From positions 4,875 to 68,874 of the forward strand of contig JBBTUJ010000005.1 of NCBI GenBank assembly GCA_038063815.1: a DNA stretch of 64,000 nucleotides, read 5' to 3'. Source of the stretch: Patescibacteria group bacterium (GTDB lineage Bacteria; Patescibacteriota; Minisyncoccia; Phycocordibacterales; EsbW-18). This document shows, in pieces, positions 27,453 to 63,808 of the stretch. The notes beneath the pieces were generated by a model, which worked only from the letters and a program-made list of their open reading frames with translations, was not told the DNA's origin and ran no database searches. The first letter of the stretch is position 1. Every line of letters starts with the position of its first letter. Both the position numbers and the translations under genes were made by a program.

Positions 27453-27594
27453 CCCAGCACGAAGCGTACGATGTACGCTTCAAGTTAAAAGTTTGTAAAG
27501 TTATAAAGTTTATAAAGTATTTTTTGTATTCACTTTACGAACTTGATGAACTTTTTACTTTCTACTTGAAGCGCTTCACGCGCTTTGTGCTGGG
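27453..27594. repeat. 16S V7 (h40-loop) insertion containing a copy of the AT-rich dispersed repeat, flanked by GC palindromes
   Basis: CCCAGCAC...GTGCTGGG closes the stem. Inside lie GAAGCGTACGATGTACGCTTC and GAAGCGCTTC hairpins plus the AAGTTATAAAGTTTATAAAGT...GATGAACTTTTTACTTT repeat. Confidence 0.6.
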
Positions 27595-28511
27595 CGGTCT
27601 CGTCTGACACTTATAACAGACGATAGGGGTTGCGTTCGTTACCCCACTTAAGGGAACAGCTCAAGCCACGAACTGACGACAGCCATGCATCACCTGTCCA
27701 GCCGCCCGAAGGCTCGTAAAGTTTCCTCTACGATTCGTCTGGATGTCTAGCCTCGGTGAGGTTCTTCGTTTAGCATCGAATTAAACCACATGATCCACCG
27801 CTTGTGCGAGCCCCCGTCTATTCCTTTGAGTTTTAACCTTGCGGTCGTACTACCCAGGCGGATCACTTAACGCGTTAGCTTCGCCTCTCAGAGGGTCGAT
27901 ACTCCGAAAAGCTAGTGATCATCGTTTAGGGCCAGGACTACTGGGGTATCTAATCCCATTCGCTCCCCTGGCTTTCGTGTTTCAGCGTCAGATATATGCT
28001 AGTGTACTGCCTTCGCTTTTGGCGTTCCCCACGATATCAACGGATTTCACCCCTACACCGTGAGTTCCGTACACCCCTCATACTCTCGTAGTTGTACCGT
28101 TTCCCATGCGGATTTCTGGTTAGGCCAGAAGATTTGACACAGGACTAATACAACCGCCTACACACCCTTTACGCCCAATAATTCCGGATAACGCTCGGGG
28201 CTCTCGTATTACCGCTGCTGCTGGCACGAGATTAGCAGCCCCTTATTCATCGGGTACCGTCAAAATTTCTTCCCCGATAAAAGATCTTTACGTCCCGAAG
28301 GACTTCATCAATCACGCGGCGTCGCTCCGTCACACTTTCGTGCATTGCGGAAGGTTCTTGACTGCAGCCACCCGTAGGTGTCTGGACAGTGTCTCAGTTC
28401 CAGTGGTGGGGGTCAGGCTCTCACCTCCCCTACGCGTCATAGCCTTGGTAAGCCATTACCTTACCAACTAGCTGATACGAGGCAGGCCGTTCTAGAAGCG
28501 ATAAATCTTTA

Positions 28512-28646
28512 CCCGCACACTAACTTTGGCATTGTCTTCAGTACGCCGAGATCATTGTCACATTATCTGTGATAACTATTCGGGAATAACGATAATAAAC
28601 CTTCCACACAACTGCCTTCGGCGTAATGCCAAAGTTAGTGTGCGGG
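28512..28646. repeat. 16S V2 insertion forming a 22 bp perfect stem (CCCGCACACTAACTTTGGCATT / AATGCCAAAGTTAGTGTGCGGG), with a partial third copy at 28664-28690
   Basis: A perfect 22 bp inverted repeat encloses 91 nt, with an inner ACGCCGA/TCGGCGT extension. It is absent from E. coli-type V2. Confidence 0.65.
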
Positions 28647-29042
28647 TTTACTCCGATTTGAAGACCATTACAAAGTTAGTGAGCGGGACCATCAGGTATT
28701 AGCCCATCTTTCGATGAGTTATTCCTGACTTCTAGGTACGTTCCCACCCGTTACTACCCCGTTTGCCGGTTGCCCTTGCGGGCCCCCTTGACTTGCATGC
28801 CTTAACCACGCCGCCAGCGTTCATCCTGAGCTAGGATCAAACTCTACATAAGAATCACAAATTGCTTTGTGATTTTTCTGAACGGAACAAAAGAAACAAC
28901 ACATGTATATCGTTCTTTGTTCTTTTTTTCCAGCACGTAGCTCATGCGTGCCGGACTTAGATACTTTACTTGTTTAGGAATAGACGAGTACTCCCAACAC
29001 TTATTCGAGTGCTGGAAAATCTTGTACTCTCTACTTATTTTA

Positions 29043-29343
29043 TCCAGCACTTAACTTTGCTCTGTCATGGTGAGAAACAATGGTGTATCTCTACCTTATA
29101 CAGAATAAAAGCGGCGCACTCTACTTTGGTGCAACAACTAATTTGCGACAAAGAATTTTTGACCACAATGCAGGTCGTTCTCTTGCCACACAGGGCTCAG
29201 AGTGGCAACTCGTATATTACGAGGCGTTTCGCGCAGAGAAAGATGCTCGTGACCGTGAACATCAAATAAAGTTTCACGGTCAAGCGAAACGACGACTTAA
29301 ACAACGGCTCAAAAATTCTTTAGAGCAAAGTTAAGTGCTGGAT
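29043..29343 (+). mobile_element. putative mini mobile cassette: GIY-YIG gene bounded by perfect 21 bp terminal inverted repeats
   Basis: Left inverted repeat ATCCAGCACTTAACTTTGCTC at 29043-29063. Right inverted repeat GAGCAAAGTTAAGTGCTGGAT at 29323-29343, which contains the gene's stop codon. Confidence 0.4.
29080..29334 (+). CDS. GIY-YIG nuclease family protein (UPF0213/YhbQ-like)
   Basis: VYLYLIQNKSGALYFGATTNLRQRIFDHN...WQLVYYEAF...REHQIK is the GIY-YIG signature. Confidence 0.75.
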   Translation: MVYLYLIQNKSGALYFGATTNLRQRIFDHNAGRSLATQGSEWQLVYYEAFRAEKDARDREHQIKFHGQAKRRLKQRLKNSLEQS

Positions 29344-29493
29344 GAATTGTCAAAGTCCATCAAAAACCCCACCTCAGCCAGTCACGGCCGAAATGGGGTG
29401 ACTAGTTGAATGGACCTCCATTATATTCATAGAAAGGATTGTGTCAAGTTTCAGTGAATCCCTTGCAAACGCCTTTATCTCGCCCTTTTCACT

Positions 29494-31776
29494 ATGCGCT
29501 ACAATACCCCCATGCAGCTCAACGACCCGCTTATAAAAATACTTCGCCTTACCGAGGCACAGAAGAAGGCGCTCAAAAAACTGCATCTCACGAGTGTGTC
29601 AGATGTGCTCTATCACTTCCCCGCTCGATACGTCTCATCAACGGGCGATGGTGTTATTCAAACAACTGCTCCGGGTGACATGGCTTCTGTTGTGGGAGTT
29701 ATTTCAAAAACAAAAGCACGCAAGGCATGGAAAAGCCGTATTCCTATGACCGAAGCAACACTCAAAGATGCGTCAGGAAGCTTGCATCTTTTGTGGCTCC
29801 ACCAGCCATACATCTCAAAAATGTTTCCCGAAGGATCAGCCGTTGTTGTCACAGGAAAAATAAAAGAGAAGGACGGTAAGCGCTCGATGATTAATCCAGA
29901 AATTACACGCGTAAAAACAGGGGGGTTTGGAGGTCCGACCTCCAGGAATTTGGAGGTCGGACCTCCAAATAGAAATAATCTTTTTAATACAACCCCGAAC
30001 TCGGATATACCACTTCTTCCTGTGTACCCCGAGAGTCGCGGTGTCACGTCACGATGGTTCTTCTACACCATTCAAAAGATACTTGCAGACGATGTTGTGA
30101 ACACCGCACACGATCCAATTCCAAAAGACATCTTAAAAAAATATAATCTTCCGGCGCTCGGTACGGCGCTTGTGTGGATGCATGCCCCAAAAAACGAGAC
30201 CGACGCACGTGCCGCACGCAAACGGTTTGCGTTTCAAGAAATCTTTTTTATTCAACTCAAAAAGCAACAAGAGCGACACTTCACCGACTCGCTCCCCACA
30301 TGGGATATCCGACCGTCGCAAGAAAGCATCAACGAGTTTCTTGCAAAGTTTCCCTTTACACCGACAAGTGCCCAATCAAAAGCGCTCACCGATATCTTTA
30401 ATGATTTTGCCGGTACTCGCGCAATGTCACGACTTCTTGAGGGTGATGTTGGTTCGGGTAAAACATTCGTTGCCGCTGCTACCAGTTTCGCTGTGGTTAC
30501 GACGCGTCCGCCAAAGATGGTATCGACAGGTCCTGCGCTTCCCAAAAAATCCGACTTACAAAAACAAGCTGGTCGTGTCGAGGGTAAGCAAGATTTCGGC
30601 AACCTTCAGGTGGCGCTCATGGCCCCTACTGAAATATTGGCAACGCAGCATTTTGAATCGTTTATCGAGCTCTATCGCGGATTGCCGATCAATGTGGCAC
30701 TCATCACTTCATCGGGATGCAAAAAGTTCCCGTCCAAAGTCAATCCCAATTCATGGACCGACATCTCACGCGCACAACTTTTGAAATGGGTGGCAAATGG
30801 TGAGATACCTATCCTCATTGGCACACACGCACTCATTCAAAAAACGGTGGAGTTTAAACATCTGGCGTATGTGATCATTGATGAACAGCACAGGTTTGGA
30901 ACAAAACAGCGCATGACCTTGGCGCGCAAAGACGAAAAGATTCCTCACTTGCTTTCGATGACTGCAACACCGATCCCTCGCACACTCGCGCTCACTATAT
31001 ATGGCGACCTCGATCTCACCCTGCTCGATGTGATGCCTCCCGGGCGCAAACCGATTGTTACAAAAATCGCCACACCACGCGAGCGAAAGGCGGTGTATGA
31101 ACACATCCGTACCGAAGTACAGAGTGGCAGACAAGCGTACATTATTTGCCCACGTATTGACGCGCCCGATGAAAACGACGAAATGGCACTTCAGGCAAAA
31201 TCGGTTGAGGAAGAAACTAAGCACCTTTCGCGCGACGTGTTCCCGGAATTCCGTATTGCATCGCTCCATGGCAAGATGCTTTCGAGCAAAAAAGAAAGCG
31301 TGATGGCCGACTTTGTGTCGGGGGCAATCAACATTCTCGTAGCAACGTCTGTGGTTGAGGTGGGTGTCAATGTTCCCAATGCAACTATCATTATTATCGA
31401 GGGTGCCGAGCGCTTTGGCCTTTCGCAACTTCACCAAATCCGCGGGCGCGTCTTGCGAAGCACGCACCAAGCGCACTGCTATCTCTTTACTGAATCGAAA
31501 TCGCAATCAACGCTCGACCGTCTCAAAGTGCTTGCCGAGGCCGCCAACGGGTTCGAGCTCGCCGAGCACGACCTCGCACTCCGCGGCGCGGGTGGTCTTG
31601 TCGGCCACAAACAGTGGGGTGTTTCCGATGTCGGCATGGAAGCGCTTCAAAATATCAAAATGGTTGAAGCAGCGCGAAACGAGGCGAAGGCGCTCGTTTC
31701 GCGCGACCCGGAACTCTCAGGATTTCCTCTTTTACAATCCGCCCTCACCGAGCGTGGCGAGGTGCATTTTGAGTAA
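29494..31776 (+). CDS. recG: ATP-dependent DNA helicase RecG
   Basis: Walker A LLEGDVGSGKT, DEQH box VIIDEQHRFG, MTATPIPRTL and QLHQIRGRVLR. 760 aa. Confidence 0.9.
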   Translation: MRYNTPMQLNDPLIKILRLTEAQKKALKKLHLTSVSDVLYHFPARYVSSTGDGVIQTTAPGDMASVVGVISKTKARKAWKSRIPMTEATLKDASGSLHLLWLHQPYISKMFPEGSAVVVTGKIKEKDGKRSMINPEITRVKTGGFGGPTSRNLEVGPPNRNNLFNTTPNSDIPLLPVYPESRGVTSRWFFYTIQKILADDVVNTAHDPIPKDILKKYNLPALGTALVWMHAPKNETDARAARKRFAFQEIFFIQLKKQQERHFTDSLPTWDIRPSQESINEFLAKFPFTPTSAQSKALTDIFNDFAGTRAMSRLLEGDVGSGKTFVAAATSFAVVTTRPPKMVSTGPALPKKSDLQKQAGRVEGKQDFGNLQVALMAPTEILATQHFESFIELYRGLPINVALITSSGCKKFPSKVNPNSWTDISRAQLLKWVANGEIPILIGTHALIQKTVEFKHLAYVIIDEQHRFGTKQRMTLARKDEKIPHLLSMTATPIPRTLALTIYGDLDLTLLDVMPPGRKPIVTKIATPRERKAVYEHIRTEVQSGRQAYIICPRIDAPDENDEMALQAKSVEEETKHLSRDVFPEFRIASLHGKMLSSKKESVMADFVSGAINILVATSVVEVGVNVPNATIIIIEGAERFGLSQLHQIRGRVLRSTHQAHCYLFTESKSQSTLDRLKVLAEAANGFELAEHDLALRGAGGLVGHKQWGVSDVGMEALQNIKMVEAARNEAKALVSRDPELSGFPLLQSALTERGEVHFE
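29926..29970. repeat. 45 bp structured palindrome in-frame inside recG
   Basis: TTTGGAGGTCCGACCTCC-aggaattt-GGAGGTCGGACCTCCAAA. Two 18 bp arms, each itself a near-palindrome, encode GGFGGPTSRNLEVGPPN. Confidence 0.6.
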
Positions 31777-31778
31777 AA

Positions 31779-32123
31779 CTAGTTGATTGTTTCCGACGGC
31801 GTTTTCGATGACGGAAGAGTTGGTACCCCTTCTGTCTCTTCTCGATGCTTTCTTTCCAACTCATCTAATTTGCTTTGTTTTTCTTGCTCCTCCTGCCATT
31901 TTGCAGCAGCTTCTGGAGTATCAAAAACGAGTTGCTTTATAGAAACCCCTTTTCCAAATAATACTTCTTTTTTTGTTCCTACAAGACTTCCTGTTTCTCT
32001 ATTAAAGCTATGTGTAGTTTTTATTTTATCTCCGTTTTCTTCTCCCTCTGTTATCACTTCCATAGTTTTCCCTTCCTTTGCATCCTTTGACGGCACGTAT
32101 GCCTTGGGTCCTTCCATTCCCAT
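31779..32123 (-). CDS. hypothetical small acidic protein
   Basis: 114 aa ORF convergent with recG. No family recognised. Confidence 0.35.
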   Translation of the reverse strand: MGMEGPKAYVPSKDAKEGKTMEVITEGEENGDKIKTTHSFNRETGSLVGTKKEVLFGKGVSIKQLVFDTPEAAAKWQEEQEKQSKLDELERKHREETEGVPTLPSSKTPSETIN

Positions 32124-32224
32124 AGTATTGGTAGATCAATTTTAATACCCCCATGCTATCCCCCCCCCGAAAATAAGACAAGCTAGCTGAAAAGGAAGAC
32201 TTTGAGAGTGAGGCGACCACCTCT

Positions 32225-34742: not shown

Positions 34743-34814
34743 TATACGGCGGCCCGTAGCTCAATGGTAGAGCGGTCGACTTATATTCGATTGGTTGCAG
34801 GTTCGAGTCCTGCC
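34743..34814 (+). tRNA. tRNA with anticodon TAT (tRNA-Ile(UAU)-like)
   Basis: CGGCCCG-TA-GCTC-AATGGTA-GAGC-G-GTCGA-CTTATAT-TCGAT-TGGTT-GCAGG-TTCGAGT-CCTGC-CGGGCCG-A. CCA is not encoded. Confidence 0.65.
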
Positions 34815-34822
34815 GGGCCGAC

Positions 34823-39578: not shown

Positions 39579-39686
39579 ATAGTTCGCTTCGCGAAAAAAT
39601 CCAATATCCAGTTATCAAATTCCAAACATTGGGATTTCGATCGTTGGGTAGTGTTTGGATTTTGGAGTTTGGAACTTGGTTATTTT

Positions 39687-40034
39687 TTACTTGCTGACTT
39701 CTTTGACGAGACGGTCAAAAACAGCCGGGTGTTCTTCTGCCAAGAGGGCAATCATTTTGCGGTTAAGCAGGATTCCCTTCTTTTTCATCATTCCCATGAA
39801 CTTGCTGTACGAGAGATCGTGCTTCTTGAGCCCCGCTGTCATGCGAACCGTCCAGAGGTGGCGGAAATCGTTCTTCTTATCCTTGCGGTGTGCAAATGCG
39901 TGCGAGCCCGCCTTTACGAGTGCCTCACGTGCCTCGCGCTCTTTTGAACCGCGCTTGTTGCGGAAACCTTTTGTCTGCCGGAGAACATTCCGGCGGCGCT
40001 TCATTGATGTTGTTCCTCGTTTTACTCTCGTCAT
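39687..40034 (-). CDS. rplT: 50S ribosomal protein L20
   Basis: MTRVKRGTTSMKRRRNVLRQTKGFRNKRG... Confidence 0.9.
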   Translation of the reverse strand: MTRVKRGTTSMKRRRNVLRQTKGFRNKRGSKEREAREALVKAGSHAFAHRKDKKNDFRHLWTVRMTAGLKKHDLSYSKFMGMMKKKGILLNRKMIALLAEEHPAVFDRLVKEVSK

Positions 40035-41282: not shown

Positions 41283-41328
41283 AATCTGCTAAAAGCTAGA
41301 CCTAATAAACTTGGCGGGGTTTTTGTTG

Positions 41329-41706
41329 TGGAGATGGGCGGAATCGAACCGCCGTGCAAAAAGGAAATGAAAGCGCATCTACGATACGTAGGACGTTTTG
41401 GTGTTTAAGCGAGTGAACTCAAAAGCGAGCAAAATATTCATACGCCGATCTTCGGTTGATGTAAGACATCCGTCGAAGCGTCCGGATATCCGAAGTCCCA
41501 TAAGGTTACACCCGAGCATGCGTATGAGACATGGGCATGCCGGATGCCGTTAGGCTACTTTGTACGCAAACTGAAAGTCTGCGGCAGTGTAGAACGGACT
41601 AACAACAGAAGTGTTGCCAGTTGTGTGTTCCGAGATTTTAAAGAAGGTCTCGGGCTTCTGTATCGCGCACAGCCACTTATTCTCTTTGTCGAGGCCAGTC
41701 ATCCCC
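41329..41706 (-). ncRNA. ssrA: tmRNA (SsrA)
   Basis: 5' GGGGATGACTGGCCTCGAC (compare GGGGCTGATTCTGGATTCGAC in E. coli). 3' GGCGGTTCGATTCCGCCCATCTCCA, a tRNA-like T-arm and acceptor. A candidate tag ORF reads ...GCAGACTTTCAGTTTGCGTACAAAGTAGCCTAA (ADFQFAYKVA*). smpB is adjacent. Confidence 0.8.
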
Positions 41707-41720
41707 CCTAAAACAGCAAC

Positions 41721-41801
41721 AGTTTATCAAGTCATAATGTTCATCAAGTTTGTAAAGTAAATTCAAATACTTTATAACTTTACGAACCTTATGAACTTTT
41801 G
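41721..41801. repeat. AT-rich dispersed palindromic repeat copy, upstream of the tmRNA 5' end
   Basis: AGTTTATCAAGTCATAATGTTCATCAAGTTTGTAAAGTAAAT...ACTTTATAACTTTACGAACCTTATGAACTTTTG. Confidence 0.6.
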
Positions 41802-41830
41802 TTTGCTACCTTAGGGCAAACGACTGGTCC

Positions 41831-42277
41831 TTATTCTCTTTTCAATGAACGCTCGATGTCGCGGTCGCTCTCTCGCTTCTTGAGGTCCTCGCGCTTATCG
41901 TACTTTTTCTTTCCGCGCATGATTCCCAAAGAAACCTTCACGAACCGTCCTTTATTATACACCGATAATGGCACAATTGTCAATCCCTTCTGCCCTTCCG
42001 TTTCGGCGATATGGAGCATCTCTTTTTTGTTGAGGAGGAGTTTCCGCGCGCGATCCGGTTCGTAGTCAATTGGGGTGTTTTTCGGCTGATACGGCGCGAT
42101 TGACATCCCAACGAGAAATACCTCGCCGCCACGTGCTACCGCATGCGCGCCCTCGAGTGACCCTTTGCCGGTCCGGAGCGCCTTCACCTCATATCCCGCA
42201 AGAACGATACCCGCCTCAAGCGTTTCAAGGATGGTATAGTCGCGTCGTGCTTTTCTGTTTTCGATGTATGAGGCCAT
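41831..42277 (-). CDS. smpB: SsrA-binding protein SmpB
   Basis: RKARRDYTILETLEAGIVLAGYEVKALR...GKGLTIVPLSVYNKGRFVKVSLG. Confidence 0.9.
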   Translation of the reverse strand: MASYIENRKARRDYTILETLEAGIVLAGYEVKALRTGKGSLEGAHAVARGGEVFLVGMSIAPYQPKNTPIDYEPDRARKLLLNKKEMLHIAETEGQKGLTIVPLSVYNKGRFVKVSLGIMRGKKKYDKREDLKKRESDRDIERSLKRE

Positions 42278-42305: not shown

Positions 42306-42938
42306 TTATCCTCGTACGTCCGCTGCTGGCAAGTCGCTTTCGTCTAAGCGATAGCTGTACGTCATTTTGTTCTCAAGTTTGTCTTTTTTCGCGAGTTCGA
42401 TAACGCGCGCAACAAGATTCTTCGGGTTGGTATCAAAAATTACTTTATTGTGCGAGCGGTTGCTTCGGTCAAGAATCGTGCGAATCGTTTCGTCCATAAC
42501 CCACTCGCCCTCAAGAACACCGATTGGCTTGTTGTCTTCAAATGCGATTGTAAATTCATGAATAGTACCAATGCGTCCACATCCGAAGATGACCGCGTCT
42601 CCCGAGCGCGTCAAAATCAAATCGCGTCCTGAGTATCCGAATCCGGTATAGACAATCAGGTCCATGTAATCAACCGGGAGACGATACGCTTCGATGTGTT
42701 CGCGTTCAGATGCCGCTGGAGAGATACCGATCGATTGTCCACCCGCCTCAACAGCACCGATTGCCGCCCACAGAGGAAATCCTGTTGTCGCACCCGTCAC
42801 GATTGTGGCACCTTGTCGTGCGATTTCACGCCCCGTTTCTTTCGCGACCTCAAATGCGCGCGGACCACACTTCGATGTTTCGGCAGCGCCTGAAACACAG
42901 ATCTTTATCTGGCGATGTTTATGCGGATCGTATGTCAT
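42306..42938 (-). CDS. Rossmann-fold SLOG/LOG-like (TIGR00725-type) protein
   Basis: ICVSGAAETS...GATIVTGATTGFPLWAAIGAVEAGGQSIGISPA pattern. Confidence 0.45.
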   Translation of the reverse strand: MTYDPHKHRQIKICVSGAAETSKCGPRAFEVAKETGREIARQGATIVTGATTGFPLWAAIGAVEAGGQSIGISPAASEREHIEAYRLPVDYMDLIVYTGFGYSGRDLILTRSGDAVIFGCGRIGTIHEFTIAFEDNKPIGVLEGEWVMDETIRTILDRSNRSHNKVIFDTNPKNLVARVIELAKKDKLENKMTYSYRLDESDLPAADVRG

Positions 42939-42963: not shown

Positions 42964-43038
42964 CAAGTTTATCAAGTTGAAAGTTATAACGTTACAAGTA
43001 ACTTGATGAACTTTATAACACGGCGAACCTGATGAACT
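42964..43038. repeat. AT-rich dispersed palindromic repeat copy between the LOG-like and MBL-fold genes
   Basis: CAAGTTTATCAAGTTGAAAGTTATAACGTTACAAGTAACTTGATGAACTTTATAACACGGCGAACCTGATGAACT. Confidence 0.6.
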
Positions 43039-44401
43039 ATTCGAGGTCGAACGTCTGCCCGAGTTCGGGATATACGGCATCTACTCCGAGATAATCACGC
43101 AAACGTTGCACAAAAAATTGTGACGCGCGCGGCTCTCCCATTGTGACAAATACCTTTTTGAGCGTGTGGCCTGTCGCCGTAACGAACGCCAAGAGCCCGT
43201 CAACATCGCGATGTCCAGAGAATCCGTGTATCTTTTCTATCTGTGCTCGAACTTGAATTTTTTCTCTTCCAATCGTGACGCTCTTTGCCCCATCCTCCAG
43301 CTGTCGTCCCAAGGACCCCGGTGACTGGTACCCGACAATCAGAAGCGCATTTTTCGGATCACTCAAATAGTGTTTCTCATGACTCACCACCCGTCCTCCG
43401 TGAGACATTCCTGATCCCGCGATGATGATCTTCGGCCCGGGAACCTTTGCAAGCACGTCCGACTTTTCTTTTTCCGAGATAAGGGTCAATTCTGGGAACG
43501 AGAACAGTTTTTCTCCCCGTGCGATTGTTTCTTGTGCTGTCTTATTGAAAATGTCAGATGAGTGTTCATAGATGTGCGTTGCTTTGATCGCCAAGGGCGA
43601 GTCGAGATATACAGGTATCCGCGGGATACGTCCCGCCTTGAGAAGCGCGTGGAGTTCATACAGCACAAGCTGTGAACGTTCAACAGAAAATGCCGGAATG
43701 AGAAGCGTTCCTTTACGCGCCGCGACTTCATTGATAACACTCTCGAGACGCGCGGTCCGATCTTCTCCCGTTTCGTGCCGCCTATCACCATAGACGCTCT
43801 CAATAACGAGGTATGACGCGCTATCGACGATGTCCGTATCGCGAAGAAGGAGTGATGGCGAATTCCCCAAATCACCACTGAAAACGATTGTCCCTGCGGT
43901 GGGATGCGTCGCGAGAACAAGGGCCGACCCAAGGACGTGTCCTGCGTCTTTGAGCGTTATCGAGAAATCACCTATTGAGAACGGCTCATAGTACGGCACC
44001 CCTTTCCAGAGAGGGAACGCCGCTGCAACGTCGGCCGGCTCGTATGGTGGCGTGGTTCCGCATGCAGCCGCCTCGCCAGCGAGAAGATGTGCGGCGTCAA
44101 CGAGAAGAATCTCTGCGAGTTCTTTTGTCTGAGGCGTCGAATAGATCACTCCCTTGAAACCATCCCTCACGAGCTTTGGAATACGGCCGATGTGGTCGAT
44201 ATGTGTGTGCGTGACAATAAGCGCGTCGATATCTTTAGGTTCGTACGGAAAATCCTCGTAGTTTTTCTCATCACACACACGTCTTCCCTGGAAAAGTCCG
44301 CAGTCAACGAGAATCTTCTTCCCGCCGCCCTCCAAAAGAAAGTTTGCGCCCGTCACCGAGCCAACGCCGCCGTAAAATGTAAGTTTGGGAGAAGTGCTCA
44401 T
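43037..44401 (-). CDS. MBL-fold metallo-hydrolase with beta-CASP domain (RNase J / CPSF-like ribonuclease)
   Basis: HTHIDHIG motif and the overall beta-lactamase plus beta-CASP pattern. Likely start MSTSPKLTFYGG at 44401. Confidence 0.7.
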   Translation of the reverse strand: MSTSPKLTFYGGVGSVTGANFLLEGGGKKILVDCGLFQGRRVCDEKNYEDFPYEPKDIDALIVTHTHIDHIGRIPKLVRDGFKGVIYSTPQTKELAEILLVDAAHLLAGEAAACGTTPPYEPADVAAAFPLWKGVPYYEPFSIGDFSITLKDAGHVLGSALVLATHPTAGTIVFSGDLGNSPSLLLRDTDIVDSASYLVIESVYGDRRHETGEDRTARLESVINEVAARKGTLLIPAFSVERSQLVLYELHALLKAGRIPRIPVYLDSPLAIKATHIYEHSSDIFNKTAQETIARGEKLFSFPELTLISEKEKSDVLAKVPGPKIIIAGSGMSHGGRVVSHEKHYLSDPKNALLIVGYQSPGSLGRQLEDGAKSVTIGREKIQVRAQIEKIHGFSGHRDVDGLLAFVTATGHTLKKVFVTMGEPRASQFFVQRLRDYLGVDAVYPELGQTFDLE

Positions 44402-44820
44402 ACAAGAGGTGAAGTTTTTCTGTGTGTAAAGATACCTCTCATCAGATACGCCGCGCACCATGCCCCTGTCATGTCCATTGCCAGATCAACCACTGTATCT
44501 GCGACAATATTTTTCTGCCCCGCAAACATCCCTGTTGCATACTCGAATATCTCCCACCCGATACCGGTTATCAATACCGCAAGTACAATTTGAAAAAAGT
44601 ATGGAAACTTTCCAAAAAATGTCTCGAACCGAAAATATCCCCACGCGGCACATCCGCCAAGCGCAAAACCACTAAGAAAATGCAACGGGGCGAAACACCA
44701 GGGACAGGTCAGGTCTAAAGAATACTTGAGCATTACTTCCTGCACTATAAAAACAAGCCCGACAACAAGAAAAAGGGCAAGGAGCGTGGTTCCAAATCGC
44801 ATCGGCATGATGGTAGACAT
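44398..44820 (-). CDS. VanZ-like family membrane protein
   Basis: Four TM helices with a VanZ-like pattern. The start is uncertain and was taken at MSTIMPMRFG. Confidence 0.45.
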   Translation of the reverse strand: MSTIMPMRFGTTLLALFLVVGLVFIVQEVMLKYSLDLTCPWCFAPLHFLSGFALGGCAAWGYFRFETFFGKFPYFFQIVLAVLITGIGWEIFEYATGMFAGQKNIVADTVVDLAMDMTGAWCAAYLMRGIFTHRKTSPLV

Positions 44821-56959: not shown

Positions 56960-56987
56960 AGAATTACTTGTGGTGAGCGTTATCGGT

Positions 56988-57812: not shown

Positions 57813-57841
57813 ATCCTAGCAAAAAACGACCCCTCTGTCAA
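57813..57841 (-). promoter_or_regulatory. promoter-like TTGACA-N17-TAGGAT inside the rplE-rpsN spacer
   Basis: Minus-strand sense reads TTGACAGAGGGGTCGTTTTTTGCTAGGAT, directly after the L5 terminator. Confidence 0.4.
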
Positions 57842-57844
57842 AAA

Positions 57845-57880
57845 CGAAAGTCCGCTCCCTTGCGGAGCGGACTTTCACGT
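57845..57880 (-). terminator. rho-independent terminator immediately after rplE
   Basis: Minus RNA reads AAAGUCCGCUCC-GCAA-GGGAGCGGACUUU, a 12 bp perfect stem, followed by CGUUUUUG. Confidence 0.6.
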
Positions 57881-57882
57881 TC

Positions 57883-58467: not shown

Positions 58468-58492
58468 ACCAGTTCGTTAGTTCATTAGTTGC

Positions 58493-58711
58493 TTAGTTTG
58501 TTTTCTTTACATTTGAAACGTGAATCGGCATCGACTTATCTAAGATCTGCCCCTTCTTTGTTCCCTTTCGCGCTTTCTGATGACGCTTCACAACGTTTAC
58601 ACCCTCGATCAAAACCATGTCTCTCTTGGGAAATGCTTGGAGAATCGTGCCTGTCGCACCTTTATCCTTCCCCGCAATAACTGTTATTTTGTCTCCTTTT
58701 TTGACGTGCAT
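58493..58711 (-). CDS. rplX: 50S ribosomal protein L24
   Basis: [27 protein letters not shown]... Start taken at MHVKKGD. Confidence 0.85.
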
Positions 58712-58815
58712 GTTTTTAAGTTCCAAGTTCCAAAATCCAAATTCCAATCTAGGGTATCATTGTTTGGAGTTTAGTTAGTGTTTGGTATTTGGTAGTTGGA
58801 TTTTGGATTTTATTC

Positions 58816-59187
58816 TTATACAACTTCAGGCGCAAGAGAAATGATCTTCTGATATCCACGCTCACCGAGTTCGCGTGGGATGGGACCGAAGATACGGTTT
58901 GCCTTTGGTTCGGGCTTTACTTTATCAACGAGAACAACCGCGTTCTCATCAAAACGAACGTATGATCCATCCTTGCGACGGAATGCTTTCGTTTGACGAA
59001 CCACAACAGCGTGGACGACCTCCTTTTTCTTGACCGCTTTGCGGGGTTGTGCGAGCTGAATCGAGATCACCACCTTGTCCCCGATTGAAGCGTAGCGTTT
59101 ACGTGATCCGCCCAATACCTTGAACACACGACCCAATGTCGCACCTGAGTTGTCAGCAATATTCACGATGGAACGAGGTTGGATCAT
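58816..59187 (-). CDS. rplN: 50S ribosomal protein L14
   Basis: MIQPRSIVNIADNSGATLGRVFKVLGG... Confidence 0.9.
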   Translation of the reverse strand: MIQPRSIVNIADNSGATLGRVFKVLGGSRKRYASIGDKVVISIQLAQPRKAVKKKEVVHAVVVRQTKAFRRKDGSYVRFDENAVVLVDKVKPEPKANRIFGPIPRELGERGYQKIISLAPEVV

Positions 59188-59189
59188 AA

Positions 59190-59438
59190 CTATGCAACTA
59201 CTTTAAAGTGCTTATCTTTTGAGATCGGGCGCGTTTCGACGATTGTTACCTTGTCTCCGACTGCAAGCGTGTTCCCAGGATTGTGCGCCTTGTATCGCTT
59301 TCGTGTCTGCATGTACTTTCCGTACTTCGGGTGCTTCACGTACCGCTCAACAATGACAACAACCGTGTCTTTCATCTTGTTTGATACGACGACACCTGAG
59401 AGCGTTTTTGTTTTTTTAACTGTGTTTTCCATATGCAT
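59190..59438 (-). CDS. rpsQ: 30S ribosomal protein S17
   Basis: TLSGVVVSNKMKDTVVVIVERYVKHPKYGKY... Confidence 0.9.
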   Translation of the reverse strand: MHMENTVKKTKTLSGVVVSNKMKDTVVVIVERYVKHPKYGKYMQTRKRYKAHNPGNTLAVGDKVTIVETRPISKDKHFKVVA

Positions 59439-59632
59439 TATGCGTTCCGTCGCGCCGACATGGCTGTTAATGCACGGGCGATATCCTTGCGGTTCTCACG
59501 TACTTTCTTCACATCTCTTCCCTTACTCCCTGCAACAACGAATCGTTCACGGCGAATCGCCTCTCGTGTCTCATCAACGAGAGAGAAGAGTTCTTTGTCA
59601 TTTTTCTTTTGTATATCGGTCATGGATGCCAT
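59438..59632 (-). CDS. rpmC: 50S ribosomal protein L29
   Basis: 64 aa, ...ELFSLVDETREAIRRERF... Confidence 0.8.
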   Translation of the reverse strand: MASMTDIQKKNDKELFSLVDETREAIRRERFVVAGSKGRDVKKVRENRKDIARALTAMSARRNA

Positions 59633-59650
59633 GTGGAGTGGAAAGTTGCA

Positions 59651-59737
59651 GGTTATAAGGTTTATAAAGTAAATGCAAGGTTTTTTTCTTTATGAACTTT
59701 ATAACTTGATAAACTTTATGAACTTTTATTTTAGTGT
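59651..59737. repeat. AT-rich dispersed palindromic repeat (one of 6 copies), rpmC-rplP spacer
   Basis: GGTTATAAGGTTTATAAAGT...TTTATGAACTTTATAACTTGATAAACTTTATGAACTTTT. The other copies are at 27481-27566, 41721-41801, 42964-43038, 61281-61386 and 63716-63808. Confidence 0.65.
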
Positions 59738-60153
59738 GTGCGCGAAACAATCTTTGTAATGACGGGCATCTTTGCTCCACCCTTGCGCAACACCTCTCGC
59801 GCAAGCACCTCGTCAACTCCGTCAACTTCAAAAAGCATTCGTCCTGCTTGAATCGGTGCCACAAAACCAACAGGTGCCCCTTTTCCTTTACCCATGCCGA
59901 CTTCCGATCCTTTTGCCGTCACCGGTCGGTCAGGAAAAATCCGCGTCCAGATTGTTCCGTTCTTTCCAAGTGCGCGACGCATCACACGGCGAGATGCTTC
60001 AATCTGGTTACTGGTGATGCGACCAGGGGCCATCGCTTTCAAACCATACGCACCGAAAGAGAGTTTGACGCCACGCCCAGCAAGACCAACACGCAAAGGA
60101 TTGCGCCGTCCTGTCTGCCACTTTCTGTATTTTACTTTTTTAGGAAACAACAT
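59731..60153 (-). CDS. rplP: 50S ribosomal protein L16
   Basis: MLFPKKVKYRKWQTGRRNPLRVGLAGRG... Confidence 0.9.
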   Translation of the reverse strand: MLFPKKVKYRKWQTGRRNPLRVGLAGRGVKLSFGAYGLKAMAPGRITSNQIEASRRVMRRALGKNGTIWTRIFPDRPVTAKGSEVGMGKGKGAPVGFVAPIQAGRMLFEVDGVDEVLAREVLRKGGAKMPVITKIVSRTH

Positions 60154-60176
60154 ATACGTTCAAAGTATGAAAAAAT

Positions 60177-60863
60177 CTATCGTTTTGCGGCTGCCGCTTT
60201 TTCTGCTTCTTGTGCAAAGATCTCTCCGCGGTAGATCCATACACGGATACCGATTTGTCCCTGCGGAATGTGCGCCTCATCATGCGCGTAATCAATGTCT
60301 GCGCGGAATGTCTGAAGCGGAATACGACCTCGTTTGATCTGTTCCCTGCGTGCCATGTCAGCACCGCCCAATCGTCCTGCAAGGTGGATACGCACTCCTT
60401 CAACATCCCTGTTTGCCATCACTTTCTCTGCTGTTTGTTTGAGGACGCGGCGGAATGGGAGACGTTTCTCGATACCTTCACGAACCATGAGCGCAACAAT
60501 CGCCGCATTTGATTCAGGGGACTTGATTTCTTCAACATCAAATTTGACCGTTTCTGCACCAGCAAGTTTATTGTCGAGAATGAATGCTTCAAGCAACTTC
60601 CGGATACGTGAGATACCCTCTCCGCTCTTTCCGATGATAAGACCGGGGCGTGATGTTTTGACGAGAATCTTCAATTGGTTTCCGTGTCGTTCCATCTCGA
60701 TGCCACCAACGTGCATCTCGCGCATGAGTTTGTGGAGAAAGCCGCGCACGAGAACGTCCGTTTTGAGGAATGCCTGATAGTCACCATTACGCGCGAACCA
60801 ACGCGACTGCCAATCGCGCAAAATTCCGAGGCGGTGTGCAAATGGATGAACGTGGTGTGTCAT
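60177..60863 (-). CDS. rpsC: 30S ribosomal protein S3
   Basis: KH domain LIIGKSGEGISRIRKLL plus an S3 C-terminal pattern. Confidence 0.9.
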   Translation of the reverse strand: MTHHVHPFAHRLGILRDWQSRWFARNGDYQAFLKTDVLVRGFLHKLMREMHVGGIEMERHGNQLKILVKTSRPGLIIGKSGEGISRIRKLLEAFILDNKLAGAETVKFDVEEIKSPESNAAIVALMVREGIEKRLPFRRVLKQTAEKVMANRDVEGVRIHLAGRLGGADMARREQIKRGRIPLQTFRADIDYAHDEAHIPQGQIGIRVWIYRGEIFAQEAEKAAAAKR

Positions 60864-60890
60864 AAATAATAGAAGTGAGAGGGTTTGAAG

Positions 60891-61277
60891 TTAGGCGTTA
60901 GCGGCTGGTTTGGTCTTGGATTTTTTTGGTTTTTGAATTTTGGATTTTGGATTTTCTTGTGCGAGAACAAGGATGATATTGCTTGCGTGCTTGTCAATCC
61001 GTGTTGCCCGTCCTTGTGCTCGAGGAATCGAGCGACGCATCGTGAGACCCTTATCAACCCGGATTTCTTTGATGATGAGCGACTCAACACCGATACCATC
61101 TTTGCTTTTTGCATTTGCGATTGCTGACTCCACCAATTTTTTGAGCGCGCCCGTTGCACGCTTCGGTGTTGTATCCAAAAGAAGAAGCGCTCGGGTAACC
61201 GACTTTCCTTTGATGAGATCGGCGACAAGACGCACCTTTCTCGGCGATTGTCTGTAGTTTTTAAGGTACGCGCGCAT
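60891..61277 (-). CDS. rplV: 50S ribosomal protein L22 with Lys/Pro-rich C-terminal tail
   Basis: MRAYLKNYRQSPRKVRLVADLIKGKSVTRALLLL... The tail is encoded by a CA-rich AAATCCAAAATCCAAA repeat. Confidence 0.9.
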   Translation of the reverse strand: MRAYLKNYRQSPRKVRLVADLIKGKSVTRALLLLDTTPKRATGALKKLVESAIANAKSKDGIGVESLIIKEIRVDKGLTMRRSIPRAQGRATRIDKHASNIILVLAQENPKSKIQKPKKSKTKPAANA

Positions 61278-61280
61278 GGT

Positions 61281-61386
61281 AGTTATAAAGTTCGAAAGTT
61301 ATAAAGTTCATCAAGTTCGTATAGGAATTTGAGATTGAAGAGATTTTGACTTTATAACTTTATAAACCTGATAAACTTTTTACTTT
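61281..61386. repeat. AT-rich dispersed palindromic repeat copy, rpsS-rplV spacer
   Basis: AGTTATAAAGTTCGAAAGTTATAAAGTTCATCAAGTT...GACTTTATAACTTTATAAACCTGATAAACTTTTTACTTTTT. Confidence 0.65.
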
Positions 61387-61736
61387 TTGGCTGCCGGTGC
61401 TGCTGCAGTATCCGCTGCGGCCTTCGCCCCCTTCGCTGCTGCGATCTCTGCGTCCTTCTTCGCTTGGTCGAGTGCCTTTTGCATCTGTCCTCCGTGTCGG
61501 CGGAATGTCTTTGTTGGTGAAAATTCACCAAGACGGTGTCCAACCATTTCTTCGGTTACAAACACATCGAGAAAACTCTTCCCGTTGTGTACACCAAATG
61601 TATATCCGACCATTTCAGGCGCAATGATACTCGCGCGAGCCCATGTTTTGATGGTCGCACCACCGGCTTTTCCGGCAGCAACCTTCTTCATGAGTTTCGC
61701 GTTCAAATATGGTCCTTTCTTGAGGGATCGGGTCAT
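61380..61736 (-). CDS. rpsS: 30S ribosomal protein S19 with Ala/Lys-rich C-terminal tail
   Basis: [19 protein letters not shown]...[18 protein letters not shown]. The start is taken at M17 of the track ORF. The stop codon lies inside an AT-rich repeat copy. Confidence 0.85.
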
Positions 61737-61895
61737 GGATGTTGAACAAAAAGAGCCCCAGTGGCTCGCAAAGTATCGTAGCAAAAAATAAGGAAATGTA
61801 AACCCCTACCACAACATCCTGACTAAACACTCGGTGTCCGGTCAAACTGACCGGACACCGAGTGTTGCACGTACCGATGTAATGTCTGTAAAACC

Positions 61896-61924
61896 TTGTG
61901 GAGGTGTGCAAAACGAGGTATAGT
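61896..61924 (+). promoter_or_regulatory. plus-strand promoter-like TTGTGG-N17-TATAGT inside the rplB-rpsS spacer
   Basis: TTGTGGAGGTGTGCAAAACGAGGTATAGT. It would drive the antisense 66 aa minigene. Confidence 0.4.
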
Positions 61925-62006
61925 TTTTGTTGGGCACAGTTCTTTGTTTTTTGTAGTTTGGAATCACCTTTTCCGCATGGAGCGGAAGGGTTCGCAGGAG
62001 AAGCAC

Positions 62007-62207
62007 ATGAAGGATGCGGAGCGGAACGAAACCGACCAGCCATGCCTTTGCGAAAAGAGTCACGCCGTCATGCAGCGGCATGGCAAACCGACCGAGGTTC
62101 GAATTCTGAGCCTCAGCCACCGCAGAGGAACTGCCTGCGTCCGACCGCTCAAGGGAGCGTCGGGGACACTGGTCGTCTCAATCGCTGCCCTCGTCGCTCT
62201 CACGTAA
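62007..62207 (+). CDS. hypothetical small protein (66 aa) encoded antisense within the rplB-rpsS spacer
   Basis: MKDAERNETDQPCLCEKSHAVMQRHGKPTEVRILSLSHRRGTACVRPLKGASGTLVVSIAALVALT. SD AGGAGA lies 5 nt upstream. About 60% GC. A promoter sits upstream and an intrinsic terminator at 62241-62270 downstream. Confidence 0.4.
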   Translation: MKDAERNETDQPCLCEKSHAVMQRHGKPTEVRILSLSHRRGTACVRPLKGASGTLVVSIAALVALT

Positions 62208-62240
62208 CACCCCCCCTCGCACTACCCCCCACCCCCCGAA

Positions 62241-62270
62241 GGCGCCGCAAGTAGTACGCGGCGCCTTTTC
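62241..62270 (+). terminator. plus-strand intrinsic terminator (GGCGCCGC-loop-GCGGCGCC-TTTTCTC)
   Basis: 8 bp GC stem, 9 nt loop and a T-tract, 34 nt after the stop of the 66 aa ORF. Confidence 0.5.
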
Positions 62271-62275
62271 TCATT

Positions 62276-62309
62276 CACAAAACCACCCCCGCCTTTCGGC
62301 GGGGGTGGT
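62276..62309 (-). terminator. minus-strand intrinsic terminator directly after rplB
   Basis: Minus RNA reads ACCACCCCCGCC-GAAA-GGCGGGGGUGGU followed by UUUUGUG, 16 nt after the L2 stop. Confidence 0.55.
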
Positions 62310-62325
62310 CTCTTTCAATTTATTT

Positions 62326-63180
62326 TTACTGGTTCCGTTTCTTTCCAACACGTCGCCTCTCTGAAATGAGGTGGTCTGAGTATTTGTTGTGGCGGCGCGT
62401 CTTGTGTCCCTTTCCTGTGTTCTTTCCGTGTCGTGTTCGTGCGCGTCGGTGTCCACGTCCTTGTCGTCCTTCACCACCACCGTGTGGGTGATCAACTGGG
62501 TTCATCGCAGTACCACGCACCTTCGGACGGATTCCCATCCAACGTGAGCGTCCCGCTTTTCCAAGAACCTGCAAACGAAATTCAGGATTTGAGACCTCAC
62601 CAATTGATGCCCATGCGCCTTCAGGAACTCTTCGGATTTCTGTTGACGGCATTTTGAGAAGTGTGTACCCCCCGTCGTGCGCAACGACTTCCGCATAGTT
62701 TCCTGCCGAGCGGCTCAATTTTGCACCGCCATTTGATTTGAGTTCGATGTTGTAGACGAATGTACCAACAACAATCTTTGCGAGGGGCAATCGGTTGCCC
62801 GGAGTTACGGGAGCACTCTCGGATGTAAGAACTGTTGCGCCAACTTTGAGCGATTGCGGAGCGAGAATGTAGCGGCGCTCGCCATCTTTATACAAAAGAA
62901 GTGCAATGAATCCCGTGCGGTTCGGATCATATTCGATCGCTTCAACGCGCGCAGGAATATCTTTTTTGTTATACATGAAATCAACATCACGGAATCGGCG
63001 CTTGTGCCCTCCACCTGTTGAGCGCGTCGTCAAACGTCCGCGTGAGTTACGACCGACCGCAGGAGAAAATCCTTTGGTGAGTGCCTTGTGCGGCTTTCCA
63101 GACGTCGAGGTCAAAACACCGCGATACGTCACGGTAGACATTCCTCTTCGGCCTGCTGATGTTGGTTTGTGGTGCTTCAT
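62326..63180 (-). CDS. rplB: 50S ribosomal protein L2
   Basis: 284 aa, ...GGGHKRRFRDVDF...HPHGGGEGR... Confidence 0.9.
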   Translation of the reverse strand: MKHHKPTSAGRRGMSTVTYRGVLTSTSGKPHKALTKGFSPAVGRNSRGRLTTRSTGGGHKRRFRDVDFMYNKKDIPARVEAIEYDPNRTGFIALLLYKDGERRYILAPQSLKVGATVLTSESAPVTPGNRLPLAKIVVGTFVYNIELKSNGGAKLSRSAGNYAEVVAHDGGYTLLKMPSTEIRRVPEGAWASIGEVSNPEFRLQVLGKAGRSRWMGIRPKVRGTAMNPVDHPHGGGEGRQGRGHRRARTRHGKNTGKGHKTRRHNKYSDHLISERRRVGKKRNQ

Positions 63181-63243
63181 GACAGTTTGTAAGTTTTTTA
63201 GTTTATTGGTTTTGAACTAAAGCGTAGCGTAACTAATAAACTA

Positions 63244-63708
63244 TTAAACTAATTCTATGGTTTCTCCTTTTTTCAACTGCACGTATGCTTTCTTGCCGCC
63301 CTGTTGTACTCCGGCGATACCACGACGATTCACCCGACGTTTTGCAGGAATCGTCACGACACGAATCGAAACGGGTGTGACATTGTAGACATCCTTAATC
63401 GCATTCGCAATCTGACGTTTTCCCGCAGCCGGCAATACATCAAATGTATACACGTTGTTTCCCGTGTGCATCGTGGCTTTCTCGGTGATACGCGGACGAC
63501 GAAGGATATTCGCGTTTGTTTTTCCTGTTCCGTGTCCTGCGGAAATCGTTTTTGCCTGTGCATTCTCCCCATCACCTGGTGTACGTGCAACATCAGCGGA
63601 TTTTGCATCGTGCGCTGCCTCGCGGTTTTCATCTTGTTTCGCACGACGAACAAACATCGATGTTTTCGCTTTTGCACTGTCTTTTGATTCTTTTCGTTTA
63701 AAAAGCAT
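63244..63708 (-). CDS. rplW: 50S ribosomal protein L23 with about 65 aa charged N-terminal extension
   Basis: The C-terminal roughly 95 aa reads ILRRPRITEKATM...VVTIPAKRRVNRRGIAGVQQGGKKAYVQL. It is unclear whether the N-terminal extension is real. Confidence 0.75.
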   Translation of the reverse strand: MLFKRKESKDSAKAKTSMFVRRAKQDENREAAHDAKSADVARTPGDGENAQAKTISAGHGTGKTNANILRRPRITEKATMHTGNNVYTFDVLPAAGKRQIANAIKDVYNVTPVSIRVVTIPAKRRVNRRGIAGVQQGGKKAYVQLKKGETIELV

Positions 63709-63715
63709 ATCAGTG

Positions 63716-63808
63716 AGTTATAAAGTTGAAGGTTATAAGGTTTATCAAGTTAGAAATAGATTGCGTATGAACTTTATGAACTTGACGGACCTGATGAACT
63801 TTTTACTT
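63716..63808. repeat. AT-rich dispersed palindromic repeat copy, rplD-rplW spacer
   Basis: GAGTTATAAAGTTGAAGGTTATAAGGTTTATCAAGTT...ATGAACTTTATGAACTTGACGGACCTGATGAACTTTTTACTTTTT. Confidence 0.65.

Follow-up and report, generated by a model that had tools for sequence, protein, structure and literature searches.

Inverted short-unit arrays in a patescibacterial genome: probable gene-less members of a PF05635-associated, intervening-sequence-type element family

The stretch of DNA analysed here, referred to as the window, comprises 64,000 nt of a Patescibacteria group bacterium (positions 4,875–68,874 of contig JBBTUJ010000005.1, assembly GCA_038063815.1) and carries the 16S rRNA gene, the tmRNA gene ssrA with smpB identified just upstream of it, and the S10/spc ribosomal-protein operon, with all genes discussed lying on the minus strand. 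The same DNA, of groundwater origin, is also deposited as ENA ERZ1292625 (Hainich well H41) and NCBI GCA_964355065.1. The nearest S3 proteins in the databases are only 76–80% identical to the S3 encoded in the window, and those that are named belong to the Parcubacteria group. Dispersed over these loci are six copies of an AT-rich element of about 80–110 bp (Table 1), in which a left arm with the unit core AAGT(T) and a right arm with its complement (AACTT) are separated by a loop of 10–35 nt, each arm consisting of 4–5 tandem units of 7–9 nt. An earlier note on this DNA had listed six such copies, inside 16S, upstream of tmRNA and in spacers of the S10 operon, and both the coordinates and the contexts agree with the sequences as read, the repeat families, the profile search and the gene calls. 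The six copies are probably non-autonomous members, devoid of an open reading frame (ORF) and comparable to miniature inverted-repeat transposable elements (MITEs), of a family of intervening-sequence (IVS)-type elements associated with PF05635, the full form of which would consist of an AAGTT-type array, a PF05635/TIGR02436 gene and a complementary AACTT-type array.

A repeat search of the window placed the six copies in families D1, D2 and D4. The spaced motif AAGTT-N4-AAGTT (AAGTTNNNNAAGTT) occurs nine times against 0.25 expected, and AAGTTNNNAAGTT occurs four times against 0.23 expected. In a MAFFT alignment of the copies, 30 columns are invariant and in register, most strongly in the right arm ACTTTATAACTTTACGAACCTGATGAACTTTTTACTTT, and an nhmmer profile built from the six matched only those six in the 64 kb, while a regular expression for at least three units at a period of 8–9 nt gave no match in 50 shuffles. 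Chance or composition as the origin of the similarity is rejected by the shuffles and the profile search, and the alignment proposed in the earlier note thus reveals a positional rather than a merely compositional likeness. The plus strand scores far better in the profile search (E 5e-21 to 3e-12) than the minus strand (E 4e-7 to 1e-4), so the copies share one polarity despite their palindromy. No Rfam family matches the six elements. A partial match at 25601–25622 was rejected as a seventh copy, as it lies within a 379-aa coding ORF, which we take from its sequence to encode alanine racemase, and has no profile match. Copies 4 and 6 share 93% identity in their left arms and differ in their right arms, a pattern that suggests possible exchange between arms.

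In the Rfam 16S alignment, the 130-nt insertion that holds copy 1 lies at model positions 1157–1161, and two small GC hairpins flank the copy within it. The five non-rRNA copies fill gaps between co-directional genes, with the next start codon 3–25 nt past the last unit. For four of these copies, the gene upstream terminates within the element or at its outermost unit. The TAG stop of the RNase J-like gene (43037–43039) falls within the terminal unit of copy 3, GAACTA, the rplP stop (59731–59733) lies at the edge of copy 4, and the rplV ATG (61277) is 3 nt from the last unit of copy 5. Copy 2 is located 15 nt upstream of the tmRNA, and an outer stem widens its structure to 41707–41815, the end of the stem adjoining the tmRNA 5′ end (41706). 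The earlier note had placed the stop codons of both rpsS and rplD inside the repeat. This holds for rplD, the frame of which extends 11 codons into copy 6 and stops deep inside the element (63774–63776). The rpsS stop (61380–61382) is only at the outermost unit of copy 5 and is native, since S19 ends K-K-stop in the window as well as in all four relatives compared below, and copy 5 starts right after it.

Table 1. Positions of the six element copies, of the host genes around them and of palindromes with a structured core in Butyricimonas/Odoribacter.
Feature	Sequence	Positions	Strand	Arms (left; right)	Context	nhmmer E
Copy 1	Window	27481–27567	+	AAGTT 27482–27518; AACTT 27532–27567 (5 units each)	Core of 130-nt insertion, helix-40 loop of 16S (gene on -)	
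Copy 2	Window	41721–41801	+		smpB stop to tmRNA 5′ end	2e-17
Copy 3	Window	42964–43042	+		Spacer of RNase J-like and SLOG-like genes	3e-14
Copy 4	Window	59642–59737	+	59643–59681; 59696–59725	Fills rplP–rpmC junction	1.5e-16
Copy 5	Window	61281–61386	+	61288–61316; 61349–61385	Fills rpsS–rplV junction	5e-21
Copy 6	Window	63716–63808	+	63723–63750; 63771–63808	Fills rplD–rplW junction	1.5e-19
16S rRNA gene	Window	27096–28852	-		Host of copy 1	
tmRNA (ssrA)	Window	41326–41706	-		Downstream of copy 2	
SLOG/LOG-like gene	Window	42306–42938	-		Neighbour of copy 3	
RNase J-like beta-CASP gene	Window	43037–44461	-		Neighbour of copy 3	
Structured core palindrome	L030	3647–3790			Butyricimonas/Odoribacter	
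Structured core palindrome	L064	5335–5467			Butyricimonas/Odoribacter	
Structured core palindrome	L073	139–273			Butyricimonas/Odoribacter	
Structured core palindrome	L085	6955–7093			Butyricimonas/Odoribacter	
Structured core palindrome	L089	6458–6609			Butyricimonas/Odoribacter	
Structured core palindrome	L116	1924–2054			Butyricimonas/Odoribacter	

The S10-operon copies were compared with the orthologous spacers of the four loci that encode the S3 proteins mentioned above (L126–L129). The S19–L22 (rpsS–rplV) junction measures 2–11 nt in all four relatives, the L4–L23 (rplD–rplW) junction measures 8–20 nt in three, with an unrelated 175-nt spacer in the fourth, and the L16–L29 (rplP–rpmC) junction measures 4–63 nt. 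No array was found at these three junctions in any of the four, and the six-copy profile has no match in their S10 loci. Because the orthologous spacers of the relatives are free of arrays, the copies at the S10 junctions are lineage-specific insertions, and the presence/absence comparison suggested in the earlier note thereby comes out in favor of insertion. In the window organism, arrays occupy only 3 of about 25 ribosomal-protein junctions. A variant population that is 98.6% identical (L005) spans copy 4 unchanged, and its sequence ends at the edge of copy 5. An apparent polymorphism in rpsS (L002) was rejected, being merely a run of N in the scaffold.

Other irregularities of the S10 operon were observed alongside the arrays. 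The operon is broken at rpsJ–rplC by an opposite-strand 419-aa ORF without a Pfam match (2692–4911 of the overlapping database contig L001), and the rplB–rpsS gap of about 590 nt (61737–62325) holds a 79-aa ORF together with hairpins resembling terminators and a weak site resembling a promoter. The relatives carry unrelated extra ORFs at the S10–L3, L2–S19 and L5–S14 junctions, and these three junctions seem to be hot spots at which insertions recur.

A scan of one genome per species, with a pattern taken from the right arm, yielded at least 120 array loci in Patescibacteria, Bacteroidota, Ignavibacteria, Chloroflexota, cyanobacteria and other groups. Among the matches listed, the positions left free in the pattern again read AACTTTAYR and many matches are palindromic, with AAGTT preceding AACTT in 21 palindromes and the reverse order in none. 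A bare hairpin requirement would not predict this order. Among these matches, the outer array end adjoins the start of a gene about as often as the end of a convergent ORF, so the arrays behave as the termini of something rather than as oriented promoters. The rRNA operon of a distant member of Magasanikbacteria (L023) holds four such palindromes, two within 16S (134 nt in helix 40 and 107 nt at the helix-44 tip), one upstream of the gene and one in the 16S–tRNA spacer; the helix-40 insert occupies the same site as that of the window, and both are flanked by two small GC hairpins. One array palindrome lies in the 16S 5′ domain of a further locus (L100). In a viral collection of 2.9 million contigs, only five array matches and no close relatives of the PF05635 protein described below were detected, and carriage by phages was rejected on these grounds.

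In six of the array loci, the two arrays lie 370–900 nt apart and enclose an ORF of 114–120 aa with the motif MKFxKFED..WQK..NNIAEG[FY]ER..KGS.GE.RSM..SGLIKTL. The order is the same in all six, namely AAGTT array, ORF and AACTT array, and the ORF matches PF05635 (23S_rRNA_IVP, E 5e-36 to 4e-33) and TIGR02436 ("four helix bundle protein"). An additional ORF precedes the PF05635 gene between the arrays of one locus (L122). The gene product is a pentameric four-helix-bundle protein of the Avd/S23p family, and the solved relatives 2GSC and 2RLD contain five chains each as deposited. For most of the array loci, no PF05635 gene lies within 8 kb, which would fit an excess of ORF-less copies over full ones.

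The association between arrays and gene was examined from the other side in 80 metagenomic loci selected solely for their PF05635-type protein. Immediately upstream of the gene, the density of ARGTY pentamers rises to 1.65 per 20 nt, and immediately downstream that of RACYT pentamers rises to 1.38 per 20 nt, against a background of about 0.08, and pentamers in the wrong orientation are not enriched around the gene in these loci. With a strict three-unit regular expression applied to 73 loci, the expected array was found upstream in 27 and downstream in 35, the wrong array in two on each side, and the remainder of those loci contained 17 arrays per 146 kb; by eye, at least two units per side are present in nearly all of the metagenomic loci. 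The six-copy profile of the window has 47 matches (E<0.01) in these loci, 37 of which fall within 160 nt of the gene borders, a zone that makes up 13% of the sequence. The gene start, ATGAAGTTT, contains an array unit, and the gene stop, AAAACTTTATAA, reads AAA-ACT-TTA-TAA (K-T-L-stop) and is the first downstream unit. The arrays most often have four units and mostly 3–5, and the period and number of the units match those of the window copies. The two arms co-vary, AAGTC occurring with GACTT (Fisher 5e-8), and their pairing energy is about −40 kcal/mol compared with −22 kcal/mol for a shuffled partner. The full-length elements mostly run in the same direction as the gene upstream (52:6) and the gene downstream (52:8). 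A median distance of about 5 nt separates their first unit from the preceding stop, and one of about 13 nt separates their last unit from the following start. In the orientation of their neighbours and their spacing to stop and start, they therefore share the geometry of the window copies.

Inverted arrays also surround more distant PF05635 genes, with other units. Those of Bacteroidales metagenome-assembled genomes (MAGs) are bracketed by CACGGTR/ACCGTG, GCGAA/TTCGC and GCTGGAT/ATCCAGC arrays. On finished plasmids, a PF05635 gene lies between AGGAGTC/GACTCCT arrays in Nostoc punctiforme (pNPUN01), between GGGAAAA/TTTTCCC arrays in Nostoc sp. ATCC 53789 and between AAGGTTY/RAACCTT arrays in Riemerella anatipestifer. 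The unit sequence changes with the protein lineage. Since the start and stop of the gene are array units and the units track the protein lineage, the gene and its arrays probably form one entity.

Some arrays have other companions. In Butyricimonas/Odoribacter, AAGTT/AACTT arms enclose a conserved, structured core of about 66–90 nt (ACGGGTGTCCTTCGGACA...CGGCAGC-loop-GCTGCCG...) and no PF05635 gene (Table 1). No Rfam family matches the structured cores of these Odoribacteraceae palindromes, which may represent an alternative RNA cargo. In Bacteroidales loci (L016, L035, L036, L120, L025, L010 and L026), AACTT arrays are often nested beside tandem 7–8-mers (GCTGGAT, GGCAATA, CTGGTGAA) and accompanied by small GC hairpins of the type GGATTCCCGC...GCGGGAATGAC. 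The GCTGGAT heptamers of L036 are the inverted arrays of a distant PF05635 gene, and an AACTT array is nested inside them.

The six window copies are classed as ORF-less derivatives rather than full elements because no PF05635 ORF lies between their arms. Elements of this family would settle where a self-pairing insert does the least harm, that is, at the tip of an rRNA helix or exactly between a stop codon and the next start. When transcribed together with the host gene, the arms would pair into a long AU-rich stem that closes off the insert and reunites the host flanks, which are the two strands of an rRNA helix or the stop and start codons. The rejoining of the flanks by the paired arms may be the reason why insertions are tolerated at such sites. 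Copy 1 is the only one of the six at an rRNA helix tip, and copies 2–6 occupy spacers of mRNAs or of the tmRNA precursor. A hairpin is the computed fold of all six. In the rRNA sense, the 130-nt insertion of copy 1 has a folding energy of −39.7 kcal/mol (z −6.0), copy 2 reaches −32.7 kcal/mol in the host sense (z −5.7), and the host-sense z of copies 3–6 ranges from −1.6 to −3.7. By comparison with classical rRNA IVSs, the stem is probably a substrate of RNase III, and the view of the copies as RNA-processing modules, one of the options in the earlier note, is plausible only by this analogy. The copies themselves are presumably selfish or neutral. The change of unit sequence with protein lineage suggests that the pentameric PF05635 protein might recognise the tandem units. 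A correspondence of five units per pentamer was dismissed as only loosely compatible with arrays that most often have four.

Several observations weigh against this interpretation. The 80 metagenomic loci represent a protein subfamily first met beside such arrays. Arrays are lacking at one of five distant MAG homologues, and of four PF05635 genes on plasmids one is flanked on a single side. An hmmsearch of all six-frame fragments found no PF05635 homologue in the window or in 6 kb beyond it. No target-site duplication, which the earlier note had advised looking for, and no sharply defined termini were seen by eye at the six copies; no direct repeat was noticed at the borders of any copy, and the flanks of copy 1 are inverted (CTTCAAGT / ACTTGAAG) rather than direct. 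PF05635 proteins are not known to have transposition activity. The host-sense RNA of copies 4–6 folds weakly, at −13 to −19.5 kcal/mol versus −22 to −29.5 kcal/mol for the antisense, the plus strand being 6–14 kcal/mol more stable owing to G:U pairs (folded 59638–59737, 61278–61392 and 63712–63813). Sense and antisense strands fold equally well in 68 full-length elements (38 vs 29, p=0.23), so G:U pairs provide no evidence for selection at the RNA level, and the arms might just as well be kept complementary at the DNA level. Some of the similarity across phyla could be convergent, given how short and AT-rich the units are.

An explanation that we consider unlikely is that the copies are host-functional RNA modules kept by selection, serving as hairpins for inter-cistronic processing, stabilisation or translational coupling. 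The translation apparatus of the organism would suit such a role, since the 16S 3′ end reads ...GGAUUUUGUCCAAU without the anti-Shine-Dalgarno CCUCC (27096–27140, minus strand) and none of the 27 genes of the tuf-S10-spc region (1–20423 of L001), whose leaders are G-poor and A/C/U-rich, has a Shine-Dalgarno-like sequence. Stop and start codons stand at the two feet of the stem, and all copies are located in highly expressed, translation-related transcription units. A 30-nt inverted repeat with 93% complementarity (26936–26965 / 28879–28908) brackets the 16S gene and resembles an RNase III processing stem, which suggests that RNase III-type processing may exist in the host. Such a module is nevertheless difficult to reconcile with the few junctions occupied, with the closest relatives managing without the elements, with the weakness of the host-sense hairpins of copies 4–6 and with the lengthening of rplD by 11 foreign codons. 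In addition, these arrays are found with a PF05635 gene attached in other phyla and in settings that have nothing in common with those of the window. A benefit to the host through processing or coupling is possible as a secondary role.

Somewhat less probable still is that the copies are ordinary MITEs or repetitive extragenic palindromic (REP)-like elements moved by a transposase of a conventional kind (DDE or HUH/RAYT) whose gene lies at another place, and that the link to PF05635 reflects mutual insertion. Their palindromic build and several dispersed copies, as well as the great excess of ORF-less over ORF-carrying arrays, are what such elements would show, and the single orientation of all six would fit a replication-biased, single-strand (HUH-type) transposition. 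However, no target-site duplication is visible, no transposase was seen between the inspected array pairs, the ORFs of which were not scanned against transposase families, and the start and stop of the PF05635 gene are themselves array units that change with the protein lineage. An autonomous transposase partner was not found, PF05635 being the only identified gene between matching arrays. The MITE/REP-like character proposed in the earlier note stands insofar as the copies are lineage-specific insertions that match the termini of a gene-carrying element; descent from a transposase or from a REP/RAYT system does not agree with the lack of a visible duplication and with the associated gene.

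A role as promoter or UP-element modules driving the downstream genes, also considered in the earlier note, is very improbable. The last units do resemble a −10 box (TATAAC, TGATAAACT) and end 3–25 nt before start codons and 15 nt before the tmRNA, and in other genomes the AACTT end is often 0–20 nt before a start codon. A consensus scan, however, found no site in copies 1, 2, 4, 5 and 6 and a single weak one (9/12) in copy 3, the 16S gene itself contains one of the copies, the relatives have no elements at the same junctions, and in other genomes the array end abuts convergent-ORF stops about as often as starts. Perfect 12/12 sigma-70 promoter sequences exist upstream of both genes in question. 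One lies at 29420–29447, upstream of 16S; the other, TTGACA-N18-TATAAT at 41983–41954 (minus strand), is situated in the 3′ part of smpB about 250 nt before the tmRNA. The latter is likely to be the ssrA promoter, as judged from its sequence, and copy 2 would then be part of a long pre-tmRNA leader. That the copies are intrinsic terminators or attenuators is the least probable of all, for the T-rich run after each plus-strand hairpin (e.g. GAACTTTTTACTTTTT) precedes the hairpin in transcripts of the flanking genes, all on the minus strand, the stems are AU-rich, a terminator scan picks up none of the six copies, and termination within the S10 operon or 16S would be harmful. DnaA boxes, IHF, boxA/NusB, Rho rut sites, the T7 epsilon enhancer, RHH operator heptads and integrase arm sites were considered as well and set aside for want of support.

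The window contains further features near the copies. The 16S gene has another insertion, of 155 nt, at about model position 189 (28511–28687), closed by a perfect 23-bp inverted repeat (ACCCGCACACTAACTTTGGCATT / complement), which appears to be a different kind of insert without AAGTT arrays. The 16S gene is followed by tRNA-Ile(GAT) and tRNA-Leu(CAG) (26058–28908), and the rRNA genes are apparently unlinked, as no 23S gene was found anywhere in the 64-kb window. A tRNA-Ile with the anticodon TAT (UAU) is encoded at 34750–34822. This anticodon is unusual in bacteria, where AUA is normally read by a modified CAU anticodon. Inverted short-unit arrays of CCAAA(A/C)T / ATTTGG form a second, smaller family, with one member in the L14–L24 spacer (58712–58815) and one at 39600–39700, immediately beyond where the last ORF ends, near 39700. 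The TTG start assigned to L24 by the gene caller (58747) falls within the former array, and the true start is probably the ATG at 58711 (MHVKKGD).

Membership of the window copies in a PF05635-associated family would give a concrete identity to a class of short, unclassified rRNA-gene insertions in the Candidate Phyla Radiation (CPR), with rRNA as one niche only of an element that also colonises the stop/start junctions of essential operons. It would further link a 30-year-old orphan family (the 23S rRNA IVS protein/S23p, a relative of the Avd of diversity-generating retroelements) to a recognisable DNA signature, as inverted arrays of lineage-specific short tandem repeats recur from Patescibacteria to Nostoc and Riemerella, and the function of PF05635 would thereby become directly testable in cultured organisms. 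In practical terms, the arrays break assemblies, lengthen or shorten gene calls (rplD, the L24 start) and inflate 16S length. More tentatively, PF05635 "four helix bundle" proteins (S23p/IVP, Avd-like pentamers) might be the dedicated partners of a large, undescribed class of selfish elements with inverted, lineage-specific arrays of 7–9-nt units, each subunit reading one unit of about 4–5, that spread without a transposase or homing endonuclease. If so, a single system would cover the ORF-bearing rRNA IVSs, the short unclassified CPR rRNA insertions and dispersed AT-rich palindromes, together with much of the heptamer repeat DNA of the short tandemly repeated repetitive (STRR) type in cyanobacteria and Bacteroidota.

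Among known systems, Correia elements (CREE) of Neisseria are dispersed palindromes of about 100–150 bp located by genes and co-transcribed with them, and their hairpins are processed by RNase III. They have 26-bp terminal inverted repeats and a duplicated TA target and derive from an IS-type transposon. The window copies are alike in size, dispersal and palindromy, whereas 26-bp termini, TA duplication and an IS origin were not found in them. REP sequences measure about 35 bp, are GC-rich and palindromic, begin with a conserved tetranucleotide at the 5′ end and have a cognate HUH (RAYT) gene. Systems of REP or bacterial interspersed mosaic elements (BIMEs) with RAYT share with the window copies intergenic palindromes inside operons, many copies and no target duplication; the window elements, in contrast, are AT-rich unit arrays of 80–110 bp associated with PF05635, and the inspected ORFs between arrays are not of the HUH type.

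STRR heptamers and other small dispersed repeats of cyanobacteria form tandem 7-nt arrays in intergenic regions, often nested with hairpin repeats. They resemble the heptamer arrays found here inverted around PF05635 genes on Nostoc plasmids, although their unit sequences differ from those of the window. We know of no link drawn in the STRR literature between the arrays and PF05635 genes, and in the literature searched no account of the array build was found that connects S23p/IVP with tandem repeats or STRR.

Avd belongs to the same protein family as the gene of the full-length elements and is likewise a pentameric, basic, nucleic-acid-binding four-helix bundle; it acts together with a reverse transcriptase and a template repeat. 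Beside the array-flanked genes inspected here, no reverse transcriptase was noticed, and the window has neither a reverse transcriptase nor a template repeat. PF05635 has been listed in the Avd context of diversity-generating retroelements (PMC10053308), and IVP genes have also been noticed wedged between cas genes (PMC3936711).

In rRNA genes of CPR bacteria, IVP ORFs have been reported in 16S and 23S insertions, and many ORF-less insertions of <200 bp were left "uncharacterized" (PMC11270868). These insertions share with copy 1 the kind of organism and site, a length of <200 bp and the lack of an ORF. That study (Tsurumaki et al., 2024) dealt with rRNA genes, so that non-rRNA copies and the array build were outside its scope and the insertions remained unclassified; the words repeat, palindrom(e) and hairpin are absent from its main text (PMC11270868). 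No description of the array build or of ORF-less copies outside rRNA was found in the literature searched, coverage of which was incomplete, and a search with sequence strings of the element returned nothing relevant.

The closest resemblance is to the rRNA IVSs with an S23p ORF in Leptospira, Coxiella, Brucella and Xanthomonas. S23p/IVP ORFs were first found in the 23S IVSs of Leptospira, and the Coxiella IVS has a 28-bp inverted-repeat stem at its borders that is cut by RNase III, a cleavage also known for the IVSs of Leptospira and Salmonella (Warrier et al., 2016; PMC4990558). The classical IVSs interrupt 23S (helices 9, 25 and 45), whereas the rRNA copy of the window lies in helix 40 of 16S and the remaining five are situated outside rRNA, in spacers between genes for proteins or tmRNA. 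Their arms are, by description, simple inverted repeats, in contrast to the 4–5 tandem units of 7–9 nt in the window arms, and the RNase III excision demonstrated for them would apply to the window copies by analogy. It has been proposed that the IVS is a mobile element with an ORF serving its mobility, a question that was raised and never resolved (PMC4990558). Helix-tip inserts with complementary ends and a long stem, the association with PF05635, the occurrence of ORF-less variants, a sporadic distribution and a suspected mobility are common to the classical IVSs and the elements described here.

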